Shown here one piece after another: positions 3,270 through 28,404 of a stretch of DNA of 64,000 nucleotides; position 1 is the first letter of the stretch; each line of letters starts with the position of its first letter. The stretch covers positions 1,885 to 65,884 of the forward strand of contig JAIOHV010000203.1 of the NCBI GenBank assembly GCA_019912885.1, read 5' to 3'. A model generated the notes under the pieces. That model was not told the DNA's origin. It saw only the letters and a program-made list of their open reading frames with translations, and made no database searches. The DNA comes from a bacterium. GTDB lineage: Bacteria > Lernaellota > Lernaellaia > JACKCT01. A program made the position numbers and the translations under genes.

Positions 3270-4127
3270 GTGTCCGAAAAAGAAACCAAAACCGAAACCG
3301 AAACCGAAATCCTGCGGATCGCGTCGCGCCTGGCGGTCTGCCTTGTCGAGCCCATTCAACCCGGAAATATCGGCTCGGTCGCGCGCGCGATGAAAAACAT
3401 GGGGATGAGCCGGCTCGTGCTCGTGCGTCCGCCCGACCTGGACGCGCCCGAAGCGCGCATGATGTCCGTCGGCGCCATCGACATTCTGCGGAGCGCCACA
3501 ATCGCCGACACCGTTCGCGAGGCCGTCGCGCCGTTCCAAATTGTCGTCTCCACCACCGCGCGCGTGGGGCAAAAACGCCCGGCCGATTTCACGCCGCGCT
3601 CATTCGCCGCGCACGTCGCGCCGCTTCTTTCCGCCGGCGAGGAGGCCGTCGTCGTGTTTGGCCGCGAGGACAAGGGGCTGACGACGCGGGAGATCGACCT
3701 CGCGCCGCGCATCATCAATATCCCCGCCTCGCCGGAGTATCCGTCGCTCAACATCGCGCAGGCGGTGCTCATCGTCGGCTACGAGGTGTATTGTGCCCTG
3801 GCGGGCGAGGCGGCCGAGCGCGTGCCGGAGCGAAAGCTCGTCGACGCCGATCAGATCGAGCGCCTGTTCGAGCAGGTGCGCCCGCTGCTTTTGGAAATCG
3901 GGTTTCTCGATCCTTCGAATCCGGAGTTCATCCTGAGCGCGCTGCGAAAGATCGCCGGGAGGGCCGGGTTGAACTGGCGCGAGGCGAAGATCCTTCGCGG
4001 CATCTGTTCGGATATGGAATGGTATCTCAACCATGTGGCGGAAAAAGGAGAGCGCGATGGTTCGCGTGAAGTGGACGGGGGCCGCGGGCCTTCAGATCAC
4101 GCACGAAGGCCGGACGTGGCTGATTGA
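3270..4127 (+). CDS. SpoU-family RNA 2-prime-O-methyltransferase (TrmJ/TrmH-like)
   Basis: GTG start. VCLVEPIQPGNIGSVARAMKNMG, VVVFGREDKGL and INIPASPEYPSLNIAQAVLIVGYEV motifs of SPOUT methyltransferases. The N-terminus SEKETKTETETE is encoded by an (AAACCG)4 repeat. Confidence 0.8.
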   Translation: MSEKETKTETETEILRIASRLAVCLVEPIQPGNIGSVARAMKNMGMSRLVLVRPPDLDAPEARMMSVGAIDILRSATIADTVREAVAPFQIVVSTTARVGQKRPADFTPRSFAAHVAPLLSAGEEAVVVFGREDKGLTTREIDLAPRIINIPASPEYPSLNIAQAVLIVGYEVYCALAGEAAERVPERKLVDADQIERLFEQVRPLLLEIGFLDPSNPEFILSALRKIAGRAGLNWREAKILRGICSDMEWYLNHVAEKGERDGSREVDGGRGPSDHARRPDVAD

Positions 4128-4884
4128 TCCGTACCACACGCGCTCGGGCAAGGGGAGCGTGTTGTTCGGCAAGCTCGCCAGCGACGAGGCGCGCGTCGCC
4201 GGGATCGCGGCCGGTTTGCCCGGCGAGTTGTCGGGCGTGATCGTCGGGCATACGCATTTCGATCATGCGCTCGACATCCCTTGGTTCGCGCGGCAAACGA
4301 CCGTGCCGATCGTCGGCAGCGCGTCGCTTGAGACGCTGCTTGGCGTATTCGGCATCGCGGGCCGCGTGACGGTTTGCCGAGGCGGGGAGGAACAACCGCT
4401 CCCCGGCGGCGCGACGGTCAAGATGATTCCCTCGCGGCACGGCCTCGTGCTGTTCGGGCGCGTGCCGTATCCAGGCGAGGTGGAGCCCGGCGGCGAGCCG
4501 CCGCTTCCGGCCACGCGCTACCGCGTCGGCGGCATCTTCGCGCCGCTGATAAACGTCGGCGGAAAGTCGATCCTGCACATGGGAAGCGCGAATCTCGTGG
4601 ACGAAGCCCTTGAGGGCGCGCGCGCGGATATCGTATTCATGTGCATCCCCGGCTGGAAACGCACGCCGGACTACCACAAACGCGTCCTGTCGCGCGTGCG
4701 TCCGTCGGTCGTCGTGCCGTTTCACTTCGACGACTTCACGCGGCCCTTCCGGGCCGACGGCTCCGCCCCCGACCTGCCGTTTTTCGGGCAGCCCGCCAAG
4801 GACGAGTTCGCGCGGGCAATCGCCGCGTGCGCGCCGGACGCGCGCATCGTCTTTCCGCGGACCAACGAGACGCTGGAGCTTTGA
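4057..4884 (+). CDS. MBL-fold metallo-hydrolase
   Basis: HTHFDH metal-binding motif. GGAGAG RBS before ATG at 4057. Overlaps the preceding CDS by about 71 nt. Confidence 0.7.
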   Translation: MVRVKWTGAAGLQITHEGRTWLIDPYHTRSGKGSVLFGKLASDEARVAGIAAGLPGELSGVIVGHTHFDHALDIPWFARQTTVPIVGSASLETLLGVFGIAGRVTVCRGGEEQPLPGGATVKMIPSRHGLVLFGRVPYPGEVEPGGEPPLPATRYRVGGIFAPLINVGGKSILHMGSANLVDEALEGARADIVFMCIPGWKRTPDYHKRVLSRVRPSVVVPFHFDDFTRPFRADGSAPDLPFFGQPAKDEFARAIAACAPDARIVFPRTNETLEL

Positions 4885-22659: not shown

Positions 22660-23484
22660 TCATTCGCCAAGATCCACCGCATCGAGTTCCCGCGCGATGT
22701 CGATATCGCCCGTGTAGACCTTCCGCGCTCTGGCCAGAAACTCGTCTGGGTCCGCGGCGGGCGCCAGGTGCGTCAGGCGCACGCGTTTCGCATTCGCGGC
22801 AGCGGCCGCCTCGCCCGCCTGCTCGGGCGTCAGGTGCATGGGATACGCGCCGGTCGTACCGGCTTCGCAAATGAACAGATCCGCGTCGCGCGCCAGCTCG
22901 ATGAGCGCGTCGCACGGCCCGGTGTCGGCGGAAAAGGCGATCACGGCGCCGCCCGACTCGATGCGGTAGCCGAAAGTCGGATCGCGATGCGAAACCGCGT
23001 GCGGCGTGACGCGGCATCCCGCGATATCCACCGCCAAATTCGGCGCAAGTTCCCGGATGTCGAGCGCCGGAATCTCATCGAGAAGATCGGGATCGCCGAA
23101 CTTCGGGAGCAGCGCGACAAGCCCGGCGATTCCCGGCGGCCCCGCGATCGTCATCGGCGCCGTTCTCATTTTCGTGACGCGCAGAGCGAAGAAAAACGGC
23201 AGCAGACCGGCGACGTGGTCGGGGTGCGTGTGCGTGACGAGGATCGCGTCCACGCGCTCGATCGGCACGTTCGCCCCGACAAGCCGCCGAACCGCGCCTT
23301 CGCCGCAATCGACCAGCAACGCGCCGCCCGCGGACTCGACGAGCGTCGCCGGCCCCGCCTTGTCCGCCTCGGGAAACCAGGAGCCGACGCCAAGGAACGT
23401 GACGCGCAATCGGAGCGAATCGCCCTGGCTTTCGCTTCGTCGTTCGTCGTGCAAATTCTCCCGCATATCGACACCCGATTGCAT
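22660..23484 (-). CDS. MBL-fold metallo-hydrolase (RNase Z/beta-lactamase-like)
   Basis: This is the C-terminal 274 aa of an 899-aa GC-artefact ORF; LVDCGEG, HTHPDH and downstream His/Asp motifs; start at ATG 23484 (MQSGVD). Confidence 0.7.
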   Translation of the reverse strand: MQSGVDMRENLHDERRSESQGDSLRLRVTFLGVGSWFPEADKAGPATLVESAGGALLVDCGEGAVRRLVGANVPIERVDAILVTHTHPDHVAGLLPFFFALRVTKMRTAPMTIAGPPGIAGLVALLPKFGDPDLLDEIPALDIRELAPNLAVDIAGCRVTPHAVSHRDPTFGYRIESGGAVIAFSADTGPCDALIELARDADLFICEAGTTGAYPMHLTPEQAGEAAAAANAKRVRLTHLAPAADPDEFLARARKVYTGDIDIARELDAVDLGE

Positions 23485-23814
23485 AAAGCCGTCATTCGCC
23501 GGTCCCGCCGCCGTGTACGCAATAATACATCCAGAATCTTCGCCGTCATGACTCCAAAAGCGGAGAATTGCAGCCCCATAGCGATCGGAGACGCGAAAAC
23601 GGCCGCGTTCACCTTTTTTGGGGGCATTCCTGTCGGCGCGAATCGCGACAAGAAGCGCGGCGGGACGGCAAACGCGGATCGATTGCACCCGAAGCGCCGA
23701 AAAGCGCCGATTCGCGGGGTTTTTTTCGTTGACACCCGCATTTGCGTGATTAGGTTTACGGCAGCCTGAACGGGCTGGGGATGAAATGACGATTGCAGGA
23801 TAGGAGAATCCCAC

Positions 23815-25719
23815 ATGGGAAAAATCATTGGAATTGATCTTGGCACGACGAACTCCGTCGTCGCCGTCATGGAAGGCAACGAGCCGCGCGTCATCACGAA
23901 CGCGGAGGGAGGGCGCGTCACGCCGTCCGTCGTGGCGTTCACGAAAGACGGGGAGCGGCTTGTGGGGCAGCTCGCCAAGCGCCAGGCCGTCAGCAACCCG
24001 GAGCGCACGGTTTATTCGATCAAGCGCTTCATGGGCCGCCGGTACGACGAAGTGAACGAGGAGGCCCGCATGGTCTCCTACAAGGTCATCCGCACGGAAA
24101 ACGGCGATGCCCGCGTGCAGGTCGGCGACAAGCAGTATTCGCCGCCCGAAATCTCCGCGATGATCCTGCAAAAGCTCAAGAGCGCGGCGGAGGACTATCT
24201 CGGCCAGACGGTGAACGAGGCGGTCATCACCGTGCCGGCGTATTTCAACGACGCGCAGCGACAGGCGACCAAGGACGCCGGCAAGATCGCCGGGCTCGAC
24301 GTCAAGCGCATCATCAACGAGCCCACGGCGGCGGCGCTCGCCTACGGCATGGACAAGAAGAAAGACCAGACCATCGCCGTGTACGACTTCGGCGGCGGCA
24401 CGTTCGACGTGTCGATCCTGGAGGTCGGCGAGAATGTCGTGGAGGTCAAGTCGACCAACGGCGACACGCACCTTGGCGGCGATAACCTCGACCATCGCGT
24501 CGTGGACTGGATCATTCAGGAGTTCAAGAAAGACCAGGGCATCGACCTGTCCAGGGACGCGATGGCGCACCAACGCCTGCGCGAGGCGGCGGAAAAAGCG
24601 AAGATCGAGCTTTCCTCCACCATGGAGACGCAGATCAACCTGCCGTTCGTCACCGCCGACGCGACGGGGCCCAAACATCTGGACCTCAAGCTGACGCGCA
24701 GCAAATTCGAGCAGCTTGTCGGCGACCTGCTCGAAAAGACGCTCGAGCCGTGCCGCAAGGCGCTGCGCGACGCGAAGATGTCGCCGTCGGACATCCACGA
24801 GGTGATCCTCGTCGGCGGCTCGACGCGCATCCCCAAGGTTCAGGAGTACGTCAAGGAACTGTTCGCGCGCGAGCCGCACAAGGGCGTGAACCCGGACGAG
24901 GTCGTCGCGGTGGGCGCGGCGGTGCAGGGCGGCGTGCTCGCGGGAGACGTGAAGGACGTGCTTCTGCTTGACGTGACGCCGCTTTCGCTCGGCATCGAAA
25001 CGCTCGGCGGGGTCATGACGCGGCTCATCGAACGCAACACGACGATCCCGACGCGCAAGAGCGAGATCTTCTCGACCGCGGCCGACAGCCAGACGAGCGT
25101 GGAGATTCACGTATTGCAGGGCGAGCGCGAAATGGCGCGGGACAACCGAACGCTCGGCAAATTCCACCTGGTCGGCATTCCGCCGGCGCCGCGCGGCGTT
25201 CCGCAGGTTGAGGTGACGTTCGACATCGACGCCAACGGGATCGTTTCCGTGTCGGCCAGGGACAAGGCGACCGGCAAGGAGCAAAAGATCACCATCACGG
25301 CGAGCTCGGGACTGTCCGACGACGACGTGAAGAATATGGTGAAAGACGCCGAGGAACACGCCGACGAGGACAAGAAGCGGCGCGAGGAAATCGAGTTGCG
25401 CAACAAGGCCGATTCGCAGGCCTACGCGATCGAGAAGATGCTGAAGGAAAACGAGTCCGCGATCGACGCGCCCGAACGCGAATCAATCACGGCGGCCATC
25501 GCCGACGTGCGCGGCGCGCTCGAGGGCGATGATGTCGAGGCGATCCGCGCCAAACTCGGCGCGCTCGAGGCCGCGAGCCACAGGCTTGCGGAGGCCATGT
25601 ACAAGAAGGCAAGTCAGGAGCAGCAGCCGGGCGCGGAGCCGGGCGCGGGCGGCGGCGCCAAGGCCGGCGCGGGTCACGGCGACGACGTCATCGACGCGGA
25701 GATCGTTGACGAGAATTGA
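23815..25719 (+). CDS. dnaK: Molecular chaperone DnaK (Hsp70)
   Basis: [40 protein letters not shown]; AGGAGA RBS. Confidence 0.95.
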
Positions 25720-25777: not shown

Positions 25778-26191
25778 ATGACGCGGGAATCGCAGGATCT
25801 GGTCGGGCTCACCAAGGAGCTTCAGCAAAAGATCCGCGCCCGTGTGACCGCCGCGGCGGGTATCGCCGCCGGCGCCGGAGGCGCGGACGAACCCGCGTGC
25901 GATGTCGTCGAGACGCCCGACGCGTATATCCTTGCCATCGAGTTTCCGGGCATCGATCCCGATAGCGTCGAGATCGACGTGAAGGATCGGACCGTGCGCG
26001 TCACGGCGACATCCAGGCCGGATGGGGTGAATCGCGAAACGCGGCAGGCGATCCGCGTCGATCGTGGCGCCGACAAGTGGGTACGTTCGGTGGAATTGCC
26101 GCAACAAGTCGAAGCCGGGACGGGTAAGCGTTCGTACGACAACGGCGTTTTACGCGTCACGTTGTCCAAGTCGGCGTCCGGCGGGCGCTGA
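25778..26191 (+). CDS. Small heat-shock protein, Hsp20/alpha-crystallin family
   Basis: AAGGAGG RBS; alpha-crystallin domain (AYILAIEFPGIDPDSVEIDVKDRTVRVTA...YDNGVLRVTLSK). Confidence 0.8.
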   Translation: MTRESQDLVGLTKELQQKIRARVTAAAGIAAGAGGADEPACDVVETPDAYILAIEFPGIDPDSVEIDVKDRTVRVTATSRPDGVNRETRQAIRVDRGADKWVRSVELPQQVEAGTGKRSYDNGVLRVTLSKSASGGR

Positions 26192-26229
26192 GCGAAAATT
26201 TCGCGCCCGGCCGCGAGCCGGAACGGGTC

Positions 26230-26260
26230 CGCGCCGGGGGTCGGCGCGGGCCATTTTGCT
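26230..26260 (+). terminator. GC-rich hairpin plus U-tract between hsp20 and the J-protein gene (attenuator or terminator)
   Basis: cgcgccg-ggggt-cggcgcg followed by ggccattttgcttg. Confidence 0.35.
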
Positions 26261-26287
26261 TGTGGGCCCATTGAGTTTGTGAACGAA

Positions 26288-27220
26288 ATGGAAACCGGAA
26301 AACGCGATTATTACGAAGTTCTCGGCGTGCCGCGCGGCGCGTCGGACAAGGACATCAAGACCGCGTATCGCAAGCTCGCGCGCGCGTGCCATCCGGATTT
26401 TCATCCAAACGACCAAAACGCGGAGCGCAAGTTCAAGGAGTTGAACGAGGCGTACGCGGTGCTGTCGAACGACGAGGCGCGGAAAAAATACGACCAATGG
26501 GGACACGCCGGCGGGCCGTCGGCAAACGGGCAGGGGTTCGATTTCTCGAATTTCGATTTCTCGCACGGCGCGGGATCGTTTTCGGGCTTCGGCCAGACCT
26601 ATCAGTCCTCGGGTTTCGACGACATCATCAACGAGCTCTTCGGCGGCATGCGTGGACGCGGCGCAAAACGAACGGGTTTTGGGGCGGGGCGTCAGGCGCG
26701 CGGGCGCGATATCGAGTCGGAACTGGCGATCGAATTCAGCGATGCCATCCACGGCGCGAAAAAAACCGTGAATCTCGAATGGCCCGACGGCGCGCGGACG
26801 ATCAGCTTCAACGTTCCGGCGGGCGTCACGGACGGAACGCGCATCCGTGTGCCCGGCAAGGGGCTGGCCGGCACGGGCGGCGCGGGCGATCTGTATGTCC
26901 GCCTGCGGGTAAAGCCGGACCCGCGATTTTCGCGCGACGGCGACCACCTCCGCACGAGCGTGGGGATCAGCATCGCCGAGGCGGTGTGCGGCGCGAAGAT
27001 ACCGGTGCCGACGCCCGAGGGGCCGACAACCATTTCCATCCCGCCCGGAACGCAGGGCGGGCAGGTGTTTCGCGTCGCCGGCAAGGGCGTGCGACGCAAA
27101 TCCGGGCCCGCGGGCGACCTTTTGGTGACGATCAAGATCGTCGTCCCCAGGGACGTCGGCGAGGCGGGCCGCGAGTTGATTCGACGGTTTGACGGAGAGC
27201 ATCCCGTTCGCGCGCGATAG
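26288..27220 (+). CDS. J-domain cochaperone (DnaJ class II/CbpA-like; no zinc-finger CxxCxGxG repeats)
   Basis: J-domain DYYEVLGVPRGASDKDIKTAYRKLARACHPDF (HPD); G/F-rich region; C-terminal substrate-binding domains; no Cys repeats. Confidence 0.8.
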   Translation: METGKRDYYEVLGVPRGASDKDIKTAYRKLARACHPDFHPNDQNAERKFKELNEAYAVLSNDEARKKYDQWGHAGGPSANGQGFDFSNFDFSHGAGSFSGFGQTYQSSGFDDIINELFGGMRGRGAKRTGFGAGRQARGRDIESELAIEFSDAIHGAKKTVNLEWPDGARTISFNVPAGVTDGTRIRVPGKGLAGTGGAGDLYVRLRVKPDPRFSRDGDHLRTSVGISIAEAVCGAKIPVPTPEGPTTISIPPGTQGGQVFRVAGKGVRRKSGPAGDLLVTIKIVVPRDVGEAGRELIRRFDGEHPVRAR

Positions 27221-27246: not shown

Positions 27247-27837
27247 ATGAGTGTGTACGACGAAAGCGGGAATACCCGCGATGAGCATCCGGTTGACGTC
27301 GGTCCGTCCGACGCGCCGTCGGAGGAAGAACAGGTGGCCGCGATCGAGAAGGAAGGCCTCGAGGGCGAATCGACCGATGACGCCGCCGCATTGAAGTCGA
27401 GGGAGCAGGAGTTGCTTGACCATCTTCAGCGCCTGATGGCGGAATTCGACAACTACAAAAAGAAAAACGCGCGCGAATATGAACGTGGCGTCGCTCGCGG
27501 TGTCGAAAAGGTCGTTTTGGCCTTGTTGCCGGCCTGGGATAGCCTGCGTCTTGCGTCGGAGGCCGCCCGCACGGCGACAGATGCCGAAGCGATCGGGAAG
27601 GGTGTCGAGGCGGTGACGCGACAAATGCAGACGGCGTTGGAGTCGATCGGCGTCGCGGAGATCTGTCCCGAACGCGGCGACAGGCTCGATCCGGCGCTGC
27701 ACGACGTGATGCTCGCCCAGCCGACCGACGATTTCGAACCGGATGCCGTCATCGAGACGTTTCAATCCGGTTTTCGCCTTGCGGATCAGGTGATCCGTCC
27801 GGCGAAGGTCAAGGTCGCGCGCGCAACCGACGCCTGA
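27247..27837 (+). CDS. grpE: Nucleotide exchange factor GrpE
   Basis: LLDHLQRLMAEFDNYKKKNARE; C-terminal GFRLADQVIRPAKVKV. Confidence 0.9.
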   Translation: MSVYDESGNTRDEHPVDVGPSDAPSEEEQVAAIEKEGLEGESTDDAAALKSREQELLDHLQRLMAEFDNYKKKNAREYERGVARGVEKVVLALLPAWDSLRLASEAARTATDAEAIGKGVEAVTRQMQTALESIGVAEICPERGDRLDPALHDVMLAQPTDDFEPDAVIETFQSGFRLADQVIRPAKVKVARATDA

Positions 27838-27856
27838 AACCCCAGGAGGCCATCCG

Positions 27857-28360
27857 ATGTCCGACCCGAAGGAAAAAGACGAATTGAAGGTCACGGACAA
27901 GCGCCGATTCACGCAACAAGGTGAACCGGTGGCGTCCCCGGCACGCGAGGAAAAACCGAAACCGGCCGCGCCGACCGAGCCGCCCAAAGGCAAGGACATG
28001 CCGGCGGGGACCGGCACGCGTCCGGAACCCTATGAGGGCGCGGGCGAGGCCGAGGCGCGTCACGCTTACGCGCAACATTCGCCGGGCCATGCCCAGGCGA
28101 GCGGGCAGCCGATCAACTTCGACACGCTCGTCTTTTCGCTCGCGAGCCAGGCGATGATCTTCCTGGGCGACGTTGCGGACGACGAGGGCAAGCGCCACAC
28201 GGACCCCGCGCTCGCGCGCCAGATGATCGACCTGCTTGGCATCCTCCGCGAAAAAACGCGCGGCAACCTGTCGCCGGACGAGGATCGGTTTCTCGGGGAC
28301 ACGCTGCGCGACCTTCGCCTTCATTTCGTCGCCGTGACCGGCGCGAAGGGGCAAACGTGA
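27857..28360 (+). CDS. DUF1844-family protein embedded in the heat-shock operon
   Basis: 167 aa; Lys/Pro-rich N-terminus, then INFDTLVFSLASQAMIFLGDVADDEG, characteristic of DUF1844. Confidence 0.55.
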   Translation: MSDPKEKDELKVTDKRRFTQQGEPVASPAREEKPKPAAPTEPPKGKDMPAGTGTRPEPYEGAGEAEARHAYAQHSPGHAQASGQPINFDTLVFSLASQAMIFLGDVADDEGKRHTDPALARQMIDLLGILREKTRGNLSPDEDRFLGDTLRDLRLHFVAVTGAKGQT

Positions 28361-28404
28361 CCCCGCAAAACGAAAAAGCCATGACAAATGCCGAGGAGAA
28401 AAGA

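Follow-up and report, generated by a model that had tools for sequence, protein, structure and literature searches.

A DUF1844 protein encoded among heat-shock genes carries an N-terminal motif found on GrpE tails and is a candidate accessory protein of the DnaK system

We analyzed a 64,000-nucleotide (nt) stretch of DNA from a bacterium of the Lernaellota lineage (assembly GCA_019912885.1, contig JAIOHV010000203.1, forward-strand positions 1,885 to 65,884; hereafter referred to as the window), focusing on a gene located between grpE and htrA in a cluster of heat-shock genes, which encodes a 167-amino-acid (aa) protein of the DUF1844 family. The novel findings are (i) a family-wide N-terminal motif, (ii) the identity of this motif with one present in the N-terminal tails of some GrpE proteins, and (iii) a heat-shock gene context of DUF1844 genes in multiple lineages. 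The gene itself is an ordinary member of an uncharacterized Pfam family, and small DnaK/DnaJ modulators encoded in chaperone operons are a known class. A link of the DUF1844 protein to proteostasis or stress is probable. The more specific reading that we favor, in which the protein is an accessory factor of the DnaK (Hsp70) system acting in the cytosol, is put forward tentatively on the basis of the sequence.

A family-wide N-terminal motif in DUF1844 proteins

The features of the DUF1844 gene and of its product are as follows:

27,844-27,849, + strand: Shine-Dalgarno sequence AGGAGG, 7 nt 5′ of the ATG (read from the sequence)
27,857-28,360, + strand: DUF1844 gene, 167 aa plus stop codon (list of open reading frames (ORFs), Pfam family PF08899, homologues)
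27,884-27,925, + strand, aa 10-23: N-terminal motif LKVTDKRRFTQQGE (family alignment, motif hidden Markov model (HMM), AlphaFold2 predicted local distance difference test (pLDDT) 57-64)
27,932-28,111, + strand, aa 26-85: disordered Pro/Ala/Glu/Lys-rich linker (AlphaFold2 pLDDT 45-50; its length and sequence vary between homologues)
28,112-28,351, + strand, aa 86-165: C-terminal DUF1844 domain (AlphaFold2 helices 88-103, 117-133 and 140-165)

A family profile search (E up to 1e-3, clusters at 50% identity) identified 8,155 cluster representatives, nearly all of 140-190 aa, which match the profile end to end (from position 1-5 to about 157). The motif is carried by 139 of the 149 top representatives and starts about 10 residues from the N-terminus. 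Its consensus is EEExGFKV[TV]D[RK]R[RLI]F[TDS]x[ED]G[ED]x[RK]E (short form GFKVxD[RK]RxFxxxGExR), with D14 and R16 conserved in at least 90% of the sequences; in the window protein the surrounding tail peptide reads DELKVTDKRRFTQQGEPV. No Pfam model matches the motif at E values up to 10, and PF08899 covers only the C-terminal 76 residues. The motif is a new element, placed outside the Pfam description of the family. The window protein has the architecture typical of the family, i.e. the N-terminal motif, a variable linker and a C-terminal helical domain with an EKTxGNL loop.

The presence of the motif depends on the start codon chosen for the gene. The NCBI annotation (MBZ0273944.1; 120 aa) starts at Met48 and lacks the region 27,857-27,997 (aa 1-47), which holds the conserved motif, while a second gene caller predicts 167 aa. 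A search with the window protein yielded 38 homologues; alignments with homologues begin at residue 1, and residues 10-25 are conserved. This conservation, the Shine-Dalgarno site and the second gene call establish that the 167-aa start is correct and the 120-aa call too short. Since the NCBI annotation drops the motif, homology surveys relying on that annotation would miss it.

The ORF is a genuine gene and not a chance product of a sequence of 64% G+C: its G+C content at third codon positions (GC3) is 0.80 compared with 0.69 for the overlapping antisense ORF, it is preceded by a strong Shine-Dalgarno sequence, and the profile of the family finds 8,155 cluster representatives. The values for the three codon positions (0.71/0.48/0.80) resemble those of the neighboring genes. 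PF08899 matches aa 86-158 (E=2.5e-24; 85.7 bits compared with a gathering score of 27; model positions 2-75 of 76), and the conserved core quoted in the original prediction, INFDTLVFSLASQAMIFLG, is found at aa 86-104, so that the 167-aa DUF1844 protein described there is confirmed. Its statement that the family has no described role also holds: there is no NCBIfam model, and the searched literature contains a passing mention only.

AlphaFold2 models of the window protein and of one 139-aa relative both consist of a disordered N-terminal half (pLDDT about 45-64; 52-64 in the N-terminal tails of the two family members) and a confidently predicted C-terminal three-helix bundle (pLDDT above 90). 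A disordered tail combined with a confident helical domain is the anatomy commonly seen for a tethered docking motif. The N-terminal 85 aa include 13 Pro, 12 Ala, 10 Glu and 8 Lys residues; the Lys/Pro-rich N-terminus of the original prediction does contain both of these residues, but is better called Pro/Ala/Glu/Lys-rich. The polar residues that are invariant in the family are concentrated in the loop joining helices 2 and 3 of the bundle, EKTxGNLSxEE (EKTRGNLSPDE at aa 132-142 of the window protein), part of which looks like a helix-capping box. The C-terminal domain is net acidic and carries no nucleic-acid-binding signature. Foldseek searches of the PDB with the DUF1844 models returned only non-significant, generic helical bundles.

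Neither a signal peptide nor a transmembrane segment was detected in the window protein, whose hydropathy (Kyte-Doolittle mean over 19 residues) peaks at 1.33 at aa 86-104, and a transmembrane reading was rejected on these grounds. The protein is accordingly predicted to be cytosolic. HtrA is periplasmic, and the adjacency of the two genes would thus reflect co-regulation rather than physical contact of their products.

The same motif on GrpE tails

A profile search of PDB sequences with DUF1844 gave nothing significant, and the initial lead was a match of this kind (E=9) to the disordered N-terminus of Mycobacterium tuberculosis GrpE (8gb3_E). This lead was tested in three independent ways: with an unbiased sample of GrpE proteins, with a DNA scan that was likewise unbiased and with a motif HMM.

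Among 120 proteins collected with a GrpE profile, 16 contain the pattern [VILM]xD[KR]R within their first 60 residues, and none contains it elsewhere. The tails of two actinomycetotal GrpE proteins (P0107 and P0152) read IKVTDKRRFA, and that of another GrpE KVKVTDKRRV; the 8-mer KVTDKRRF is identical in the window DUF1844 protein, P0107 and P0152. Nitrospinota-type GrpE proteins and the GrpE encoded at locus L035 carry a VSVVDRRHWVR variant.

Metagenome contigs were scanned at the DNA level for a degenerate sequence encoding KVTDKRR followed by a hydrophobic codon. Of the 120 matches, 69 are GrpE N-terminal tails, about 8 more are GrpE tails truncated where a contig stops and 9-11 are DUF1844 N-terminal tails, while the remaining 30 or so are scattered, mostly in implausible ORFs. 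The residues that follow the motif differ between the two proteins, with IDPETGE[VL]R in many GrpE tails and FTPEGEAK in DUF1844.

The HMM of the motif (22 positions) was derived exclusively from DUF1844 proteins. When applied to 4,412 six-frame ORFs, it gave 40 matches of at least 12 bits, all of them to DUF1844 ORFs. The GrpE proteins of M. tuberculosis, P0107 and P0152 scored 15.1, 14.6 and 12.5 bits, respectively, compared with 7.3 bits for the best of 2,400 shuffled GrpE sequences. For GrpE tails we propose the motif class [VILF]x[VI]xD[KR]R, located in a disordered region within about 60 N-terminal residues; the window DUF1844 protein falls into this class, which is not a curated one.

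The similarity is confined to the tail. Comparison of DUF1844 with GrpE using hhalign gave a probability of 0.5%, with no homology beyond the tail, and the GrpE family (PF01025) produced no match to the DUF1844 protein at E values up to 10, so that the protein is not a member of the GrpE family. PF24414 (DUF7547), considered as a model of the tail, was rejected, as it aligns to the coiled coil of a motif-bearing GrpE.

The tails of GrpE are functionally important. The 42-44 N-terminal residues of M. tuberculosis GrpE are disordered, GrpE N-terminal tails have been reported to drive substrate release from DnaK, and the M. tuberculosis deltaN42 variant fails in a substrate-release assay (PMC10803776). 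In Escherichia coli GrpE, nuclear magnetic resonance and mutagenesis place an IIM cluster of the tail in the canonical substrate site of DnaK (PMC12633562). The motif peptide is mentioned in the searched literature only in two antigen-oriented papers on M. tuberculosis and M. bovis.

Several further observations were made on motif-bearing GrpE proteins. The variant tail [VI]x[VI]xDRRHWVR[KR] is present in a clade of GrpE proteins that comprises P0042, P0043, P0050, P0052, P0053, P0056, P0060, P0062, P0068 and the GrpE of L035, and one member of which is labelled Nitrospinota. In locus L035, a motif-bearing GrpE (3444-4097) and a DUF1844 gene with the sequence FTVTDRRFSKEG are encoded about 1.7 kb apart on the same strand of one cluster, which indicates that the two motif carriers can coexist. 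In locus L100, a near-perfect HAIR (HspR) operator, CTTGAGCCGTATCGGCTCAAG (3744-3764), lies approximately 2 kb 5′ of a motif-bearing grpE (5707). The HAIR operator is expected for Actinomycetota.

Conservation of the gene neighborhood

The gene order in the window is dnaK-hsp20-dnaJ(class B)-grpE-DUF1844-htrA-(DUF3800 gene, opposite strand)-clpB. The stop codon of grpE ends at 27,837 and the ATG of the DUF1844 gene is at 27,857, leaving the 19-nt spacer noted in the original prediction, which contains the AGGAGG sequence. The DUF1844 stop codon (TGA, 28,358-28,360) overlaps the GTG start of htrA at 28,357 (GTGA; 4 nt), again as predicted, although an alternative ATG start of htrA at 28,381, 24 nt downstream of the GTG, would leave a 20-nt gap.

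The order dnaK-hsp20-dnaJ-grpE-DUF1844-htrA is identical on three other contigs (L081, L082 and L205). The DUF1844 proteins of these closest long-contig relatives (P0002, P0007 and P0004, respectively) are 40-45% identical to that of the window. The clpB gene directly follows htrA in L081 and L082; the sequence of L205 ends after htrA.

We also scanned genomes, one per species, using a 7-sequence alignment as the query. At least 396 DUF1844 loci were detected, of which the best 80 were kept. In 29 of these 80, a chaperone or protease gene lies within 3 kb of the DUF1844 gene, in all 29 cases on the same strand. The families represented are HtrA (14), ClpB (14), Hsp20 (2), DnaJ (2) and GrpE (1), and direct adjacency to grpE is confined to the window's own clade. 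The arrangement DUF1844-htrA-ispE-prs-ctc-pth occurs in Desulfobacterota-type metagenome-assembled genomes (MAGs) and htrA-DUF1844 in Anaeromyxobacter; in Myxococcaceae, DUF1844 is followed by a membrane protein gene and then clpB. Other lineages have hsp20-DUF1844 or hsp20-dnaJ(B)-DUF1844 (including L045), and one further contig carries FKBP-x-DUF1844-HtrA. The loci recovered in the motif scan include hsp20-dnaJ(B)-DUF1844 (L107, L195), dnaJ(B)-DUF1844 (L134), DUF1844-htrA (L149) and DUF1844-htrA-clpB (L201). A class-B dnaJ is therefore located directly 5′ of DUF1844 in L045, L107, L134 and L195, and is separated from it by grpE in the window, L081, L082 and L205. The original prediction proposed that adjacency be checked across genomes and would have been refuted had the adjacency been conserved in no other genome; it passes this check, as the same operon recurs in the three relatives, and DUF1844-htrA adjacency recurs in genomes of Desulfobacterota and Myxococcota. 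The chaperone partner gene varies between lineages, while the heat-shock theme is constant. The DUF1844 family as a whole spans Acidobacteriota, Desulfobacterota, Myxococcota, Nitrospirota and other groups.

Other genes were noted at some of these loci. In Myxococcaceae, a predicted membrane protein of approximately 215 aa with no Pfam match is encoded about 15 nt after DUF1844 (L011:6240-6887 and 14 other loci). In Desulfobacterota-type MAGs (L071:4034-5802, L031, L018 and L035), genes for myo-inositol-1-phosphate synthase and a CDP-alcohol phosphatidyltransferase are located between a DnaJ/ClpB-like block and DUF1844-htrA; such enzymes within a heat-shock cluster may produce inositol lipids or a solute of the inositol-phosphate type. 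A short ClpB-like AAA+ protein, 35-45% identical to the window ClpB, is encoded right after dnaJ in L031 (1688-3952; 754 aa), L071 (1729-3986; frame apparently split in two) and L018 (5-3013).

Proposed role and alternative explanations

The proteostasis reading is supported by the motif in common with GrpE tails, since this evidence is independent of gene context. The function in protein folding or stress, which the original prediction had derived from operon membership, is thus supported by the conserved context as well as by the motif. We infer DnaK as the target, and a modulatory role, from the observed architecture, neighborhoods and motif sharing. In the proposed mechanism, the DUF1844 gene would be co-transcribed with dnaJ, grpE and htrA, and its product would comprise (i) the disordered N-terminal motif LKVTDKRRFTQQGE, (ii) a flexible linker of roughly 60 residues and (iii) the conserved three-helix bundle. 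The mechanism is modelled on GrpE, whose N-terminal tails occupy the substrate-binding domain of DnaK transiently and promote release; the DUF1844 tail would likewise act as a weak pseudo-substrate, docking at the same site of DnaK. For the helical domain, the functions envisaged are an additional contact, be it to DnaK, to the class-B DnaJ or to GrpE, and a part in dimerization or thermosensing. As a result, the protein may tune substrate binding and release, or it may hold DnaK and DnaJ in a resting complex, as DafA and CbpM do.

We regard direct action on the DnaK system via the motif as almost evenly balanced between being right and wrong, and any specific mode of action as less probable than that. 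A more far-reaching reading, possible although rather doubtful, is that DUF1844 is a large, widespread and unrecognized family of Hsp70 co-factors, in which a GrpE release tail has been placed on a three-helix scaffold of its own and acts in trans on DnaK. As part of this reading, the protein could be a DafA-like pseudo-substrate release or assembly factor, or even a second, BAG-like exchange factor, and peptides of the KVTDKRRF type could represent a DnaK-docking motif that is portable and has come to be carried by two scaffolds of unrelated origin.

A number of observations weigh against a DnaK-directed role. A chaperone neighbor is missing at 64% of the genome loci. In Acidobacteriota the neighborhood is DUF1844-MBL hydrolase-RibF(-CysS), a divergent MazG gene lies beside DUF1844 in Vicinamibacteria, Terriglobia and Nitrospira, and one DUF1844 lineage has neither context. 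A published survey linked DUF1844 to D-Tyr-tRNA deacylase in Deinococcus-Thermus. Heat-shock operators of the CIRCE and HAIR types were found neither in the window nor in the vicinity of DUF1844 at the loci. The Myxococcaceae members encoded near clpB no longer possess the D[KR]R core and have ETFVMRGE instead, and the helical domain showed no resemblance to known Hsp70-, J- or GrpE-binding domains. The effects of the tails have been established for whole GrpE tails, and neither of the two studies resolves the VTDKRR segment (PMC10803776, PMC12633562). Moreover, the E. coli tail motif is hydrophobic (IIM) and acid-flanked, whereas that of DUF1844 is basic and includes an Asp that is invariant, and it may consequently bind a different site or partner. 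Finally, the GrpE proteins encoded beside DUF1844 have hydrophobic N-terminal clusters of their own, SVYDE in the window and KKIIPI in the relatives. DUF1844 is therefore not simply replacing a missing tail, and the idea that it supplies one to the neighboring GrpE is weakened.

Many of these points would fit a housekeeping protein that is co-regulated with stress genes but makes no contact with DnaK, with a task in translation, in the quality control of tRNA or in nucleotide housekeeping. The K/R-rich, basic motif would then bind another partner, for example the ribosome or RNA, which some GrpE tails would contact as well. DafA has been reported to cycle between DnaK and ribosomes. Outside the delta-type lineages, the commonest neighbors of DUF1844 are indeed MazG (31 loci, divergent), an MBL-fold hydrolase with RibF (27 loci), CysS and ispE-prs-ctc-pth, and the survey's deacylase link points in the same direction. 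This explanation, however, leaves unaccounted for both the near-restriction of the motif, outside DUF1844, to GrpE tails and the recurrence of five chaperone and protease families on the same strand, and it does not agree with the net acidic C-terminal domain lacking a nucleic-acid-binding signature. We consider it unlikely, although it is the most probable of the alternatives. Somewhat less probable is a role chiefly as a modulator of the upstream class-B DnaJ, i.e. a counterpart of CbpM and DafA that binds the J-protein via the helical bundle, with the tail being secondary. The four loci with dnaJ directly upstream, and L081, L082, L205 and the window with dnaJ one gene away, have a gene order like that of cbpA-cbpM and dnaJ-dafA, but dnaJ is missing from the surroundings of many DUF1844 genes, sequence similarity to CbpM was not detected (Pfam searches to E 10 give PF08899 only), and the GrpE-type tail would remain without an explanation. 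The DnaJ-centered role overlaps with the DnaK accessory role that we favor and does not exclude it.

It is improbable that the protein is an alternative nucleotide-exchange factor, in which a BAG-like three-helix bundle opens the nucleotide-binding domain of DnaK and the GrpE-like tail clears the substrate site. The combination of release tail and helical bundle parallels GrpE, eukaryotic exchange factors with substrate-mimicking release domains exist, BAG domains are three-helix bundles and AtBAG1 (4hwc) is among the Foldseek matches; this match, however, ranks 48th with E=3.6, a value that dozens of unrelated helical bundles equal or surpass, there is no BAG match in Pfam, a canonical grpE lies next door, and hhalign finds no relation to GrpE. 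Incidental adjacency, combined with a chance or convergent motif in a protein with no proteostasis role, is disfavored and has a slightly smaller chance still of being correct. Most family members are not encoded beside chaperone genes and the PDB match to M. tuberculosis GrpE was not significant, but operon identity is kept at 40-45% protein identity, the chaperone neighbors are always on the same strand, an identical 8-mer is present on GrpE tails, which also account for 69 of the 120 motif matches, and shuffled sequences score at most 7.3 bits compared with 12.5-15.1. The idea that the RRxF N-terminus is a twin-arginine export signal, making DUF1844 a periplasmic partner of HtrA, can be regarded as effectively refuted. 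TDKRRF superficially resembles S/T-R-R-x-F-L-K and the next gene encodes periplasmic HtrA; the motif is, however, followed by an acidic, Pro-rich disordered segment in place of a hydrophobic h-region, the hydropathy peak lies inside helix 1 of the folded domain, and cytosolic GrpE has the same motif. A twin-arginine signal peptide was therefore rejected.

The bacterial DnaK machine is usually described with an obligatory DnaJ and GrpE, together with a small number of modulators restricted to certain lineages, for example DafA and CbpM. The DUF1844 family, with more than 8,000 clusters, occurs in heat-shock operons of several phyla and has a tail motif of 15-17 residues in common with GrpE. If the peptide does bind DnaK, this could assign a function to a long-standing domain of unknown function and would pinpoint the residues that matter in the M. 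tuberculosis GrpE tail. Substrate release from DnaK, an essential protein of this species, requires that tail.

The chaperone gene cluster of the window

The remaining features of the cluster are listed below:

23,729-23,756, + strand: promoter-like sequence TTGACA-16-TAGGTT, 5′ of dnaK (putative)
23,815-25,719, + strand: dnaK (PF00012 at 6.2e-268)
25,778-26,191, + strand: hsp20, small heat-shock protein (PF00011 at 8.1e-14)
26,226-26,252, + strand: GC-rich hairpin of 12 pairs followed by a T-run, terminator-like, after hsp20 (terminator or attenuator)
26,279-27,220, + strand: dnaJ of class B, CbpA-like (only the Pfam DnaJ (J domain) and DnaJ_C domains, with no zinc-finger domain)
27,247-27,837, + strand: grpE, 196 aa, N-terminus MSVYDESGNTRDEH (PF01025 at 1.8e-37)
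28,357-29,859, + strand: htrA/degP-type serine protease (Trypsin_2, PDZ_2 and PDZ_6; two PDZ domains)
29,867-30,880, - strand: DUF3800 gene, between htrA and clpB
30,983-33,565, + strand: clpB disaggregase (Clp_N, AAA, AAA_lid_9, AAA_2, ClpB_D2-small)

The Pfam matches bear out the identification of the two flanking genes as grpE and htrA in the original prediction. The N-terminal tail of the window GrpE has no KVTDKRR motif of its own, and the N-terminus of HtrA, LRRKFLYPLALAMILMATSVCVA, is a hydrophobic signal or anchor. For hsp20, MTRESQ was taken as the start so as to match the 137-aa orthologues encoded by L081 and L205. The DUF3800 gene is absent between htrA and clpB in L081 and L082, where these genes are directly adjacent; its GC3 (0.68) is lower than that of its neighbors (0.80-0.88), which suggests a later insertion.

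Co-transcription of dnaJ, grpE, DUF1844 and htrA is likely, because no terminator-like site was found on the + strand between these genes of the window. Terminators follow htrA in the relatives L081 and L082. Hairpins are also present between hsp20 and dnaJ at the matching position in L081 (about 4200-4260) and L082 (about 1690-1740), and the hairpin after hsp20 may be an attenuator that sets the ratio of expression of dnaK-hsp20 to that of dnaJ-grpE-DUF1844-htrA. At the promoter-like site upstream of dnaK, the window and L081 have CGTTGACAnCCCnnTTTnCnTGATTAnnTTT in common; a consensus promoter scan, which was uninformative, did not call the site. Rfam and tRNA scans of the window found nothing. 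Upstream of dnaK, in divergent orientation, is a gene for an MBL-fold (HxHxDH) hydrolase (about 22,660-23,560, - strand). In Acidobacteriota, the gene after DUF1844 encodes an MBL-fold hydrolase.

Comparison with known systems

The closest comparison is with the N-terminal tail of GrpE (aa 1-42 in M. tuberculosis, aa 1-33 in E. coli), the tails of M. tuberculosis and Actinomycetota having the peptide motif in common with DUF1844. In both proteins the motif is located 9-25 residues from the N-terminus in a disordered region, followed by an acidic or Pro/Ala-rich linker and then by a helical domain. Unlike GrpE, DUF1844 has neither a coiled coil nor the beta-domain that contacts the nucleotide-binding domain of DnaK, and the rest of the two proteins is unrelated; in addition, the motif is carried by a minority of GrpE proteins (16 of 120) but by nearly all DUF1844 proteins.

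With regard to BAG-domain and other Hsp70 exchange factors, the likeness consists of a three-helix C-terminal domain and a flexible segment that could occupy the substrate site. The protein does not qualify as a BAG-domain protein: there is no Pfam match, and the low-ranking Foldseek match (4hwc_A) is absent from the top 50 of the second model. A nucleotide-exchange role for DUF1844 is purely speculative.

The gene for DafA, the DnaK-DnaJ assembly factor of Thermus thermophilus, belongs to the dnaK operon, and the protein binds both DnaK and DnaJ until substrate displaces it; in E. coli, the gene for CbpM comes after that for the zinc-finger-less CbpA, which CbpM modulates. In D. vulgaris, a protein labelled DafA (DVU1875) co-purifies with DnaK (PMC3125180). 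A small gene located right after a zinc-finger-less dnaJ in a chaperone operon is likewise found in L045, L107, L134 and L195, and the arrangements hsp20-dnaJ(B)-DUF1844 and dnaJ(B)-grpE-DUF1844-...-clpB mirror this order. DUF1844 is not a member of the MerR_2-type family of CbpM, as shown by the Pfam search mentioned above, and it differs from both modulators in its larger size and long disordered N-terminal half. Thermus has been reported to possess a separate DUF1844 gene elsewhere in its genome. With respect to PF08899 as currently defined, the window protein is a bona fide member, whose N-terminal motif and two-part architecture lie outside the family description.

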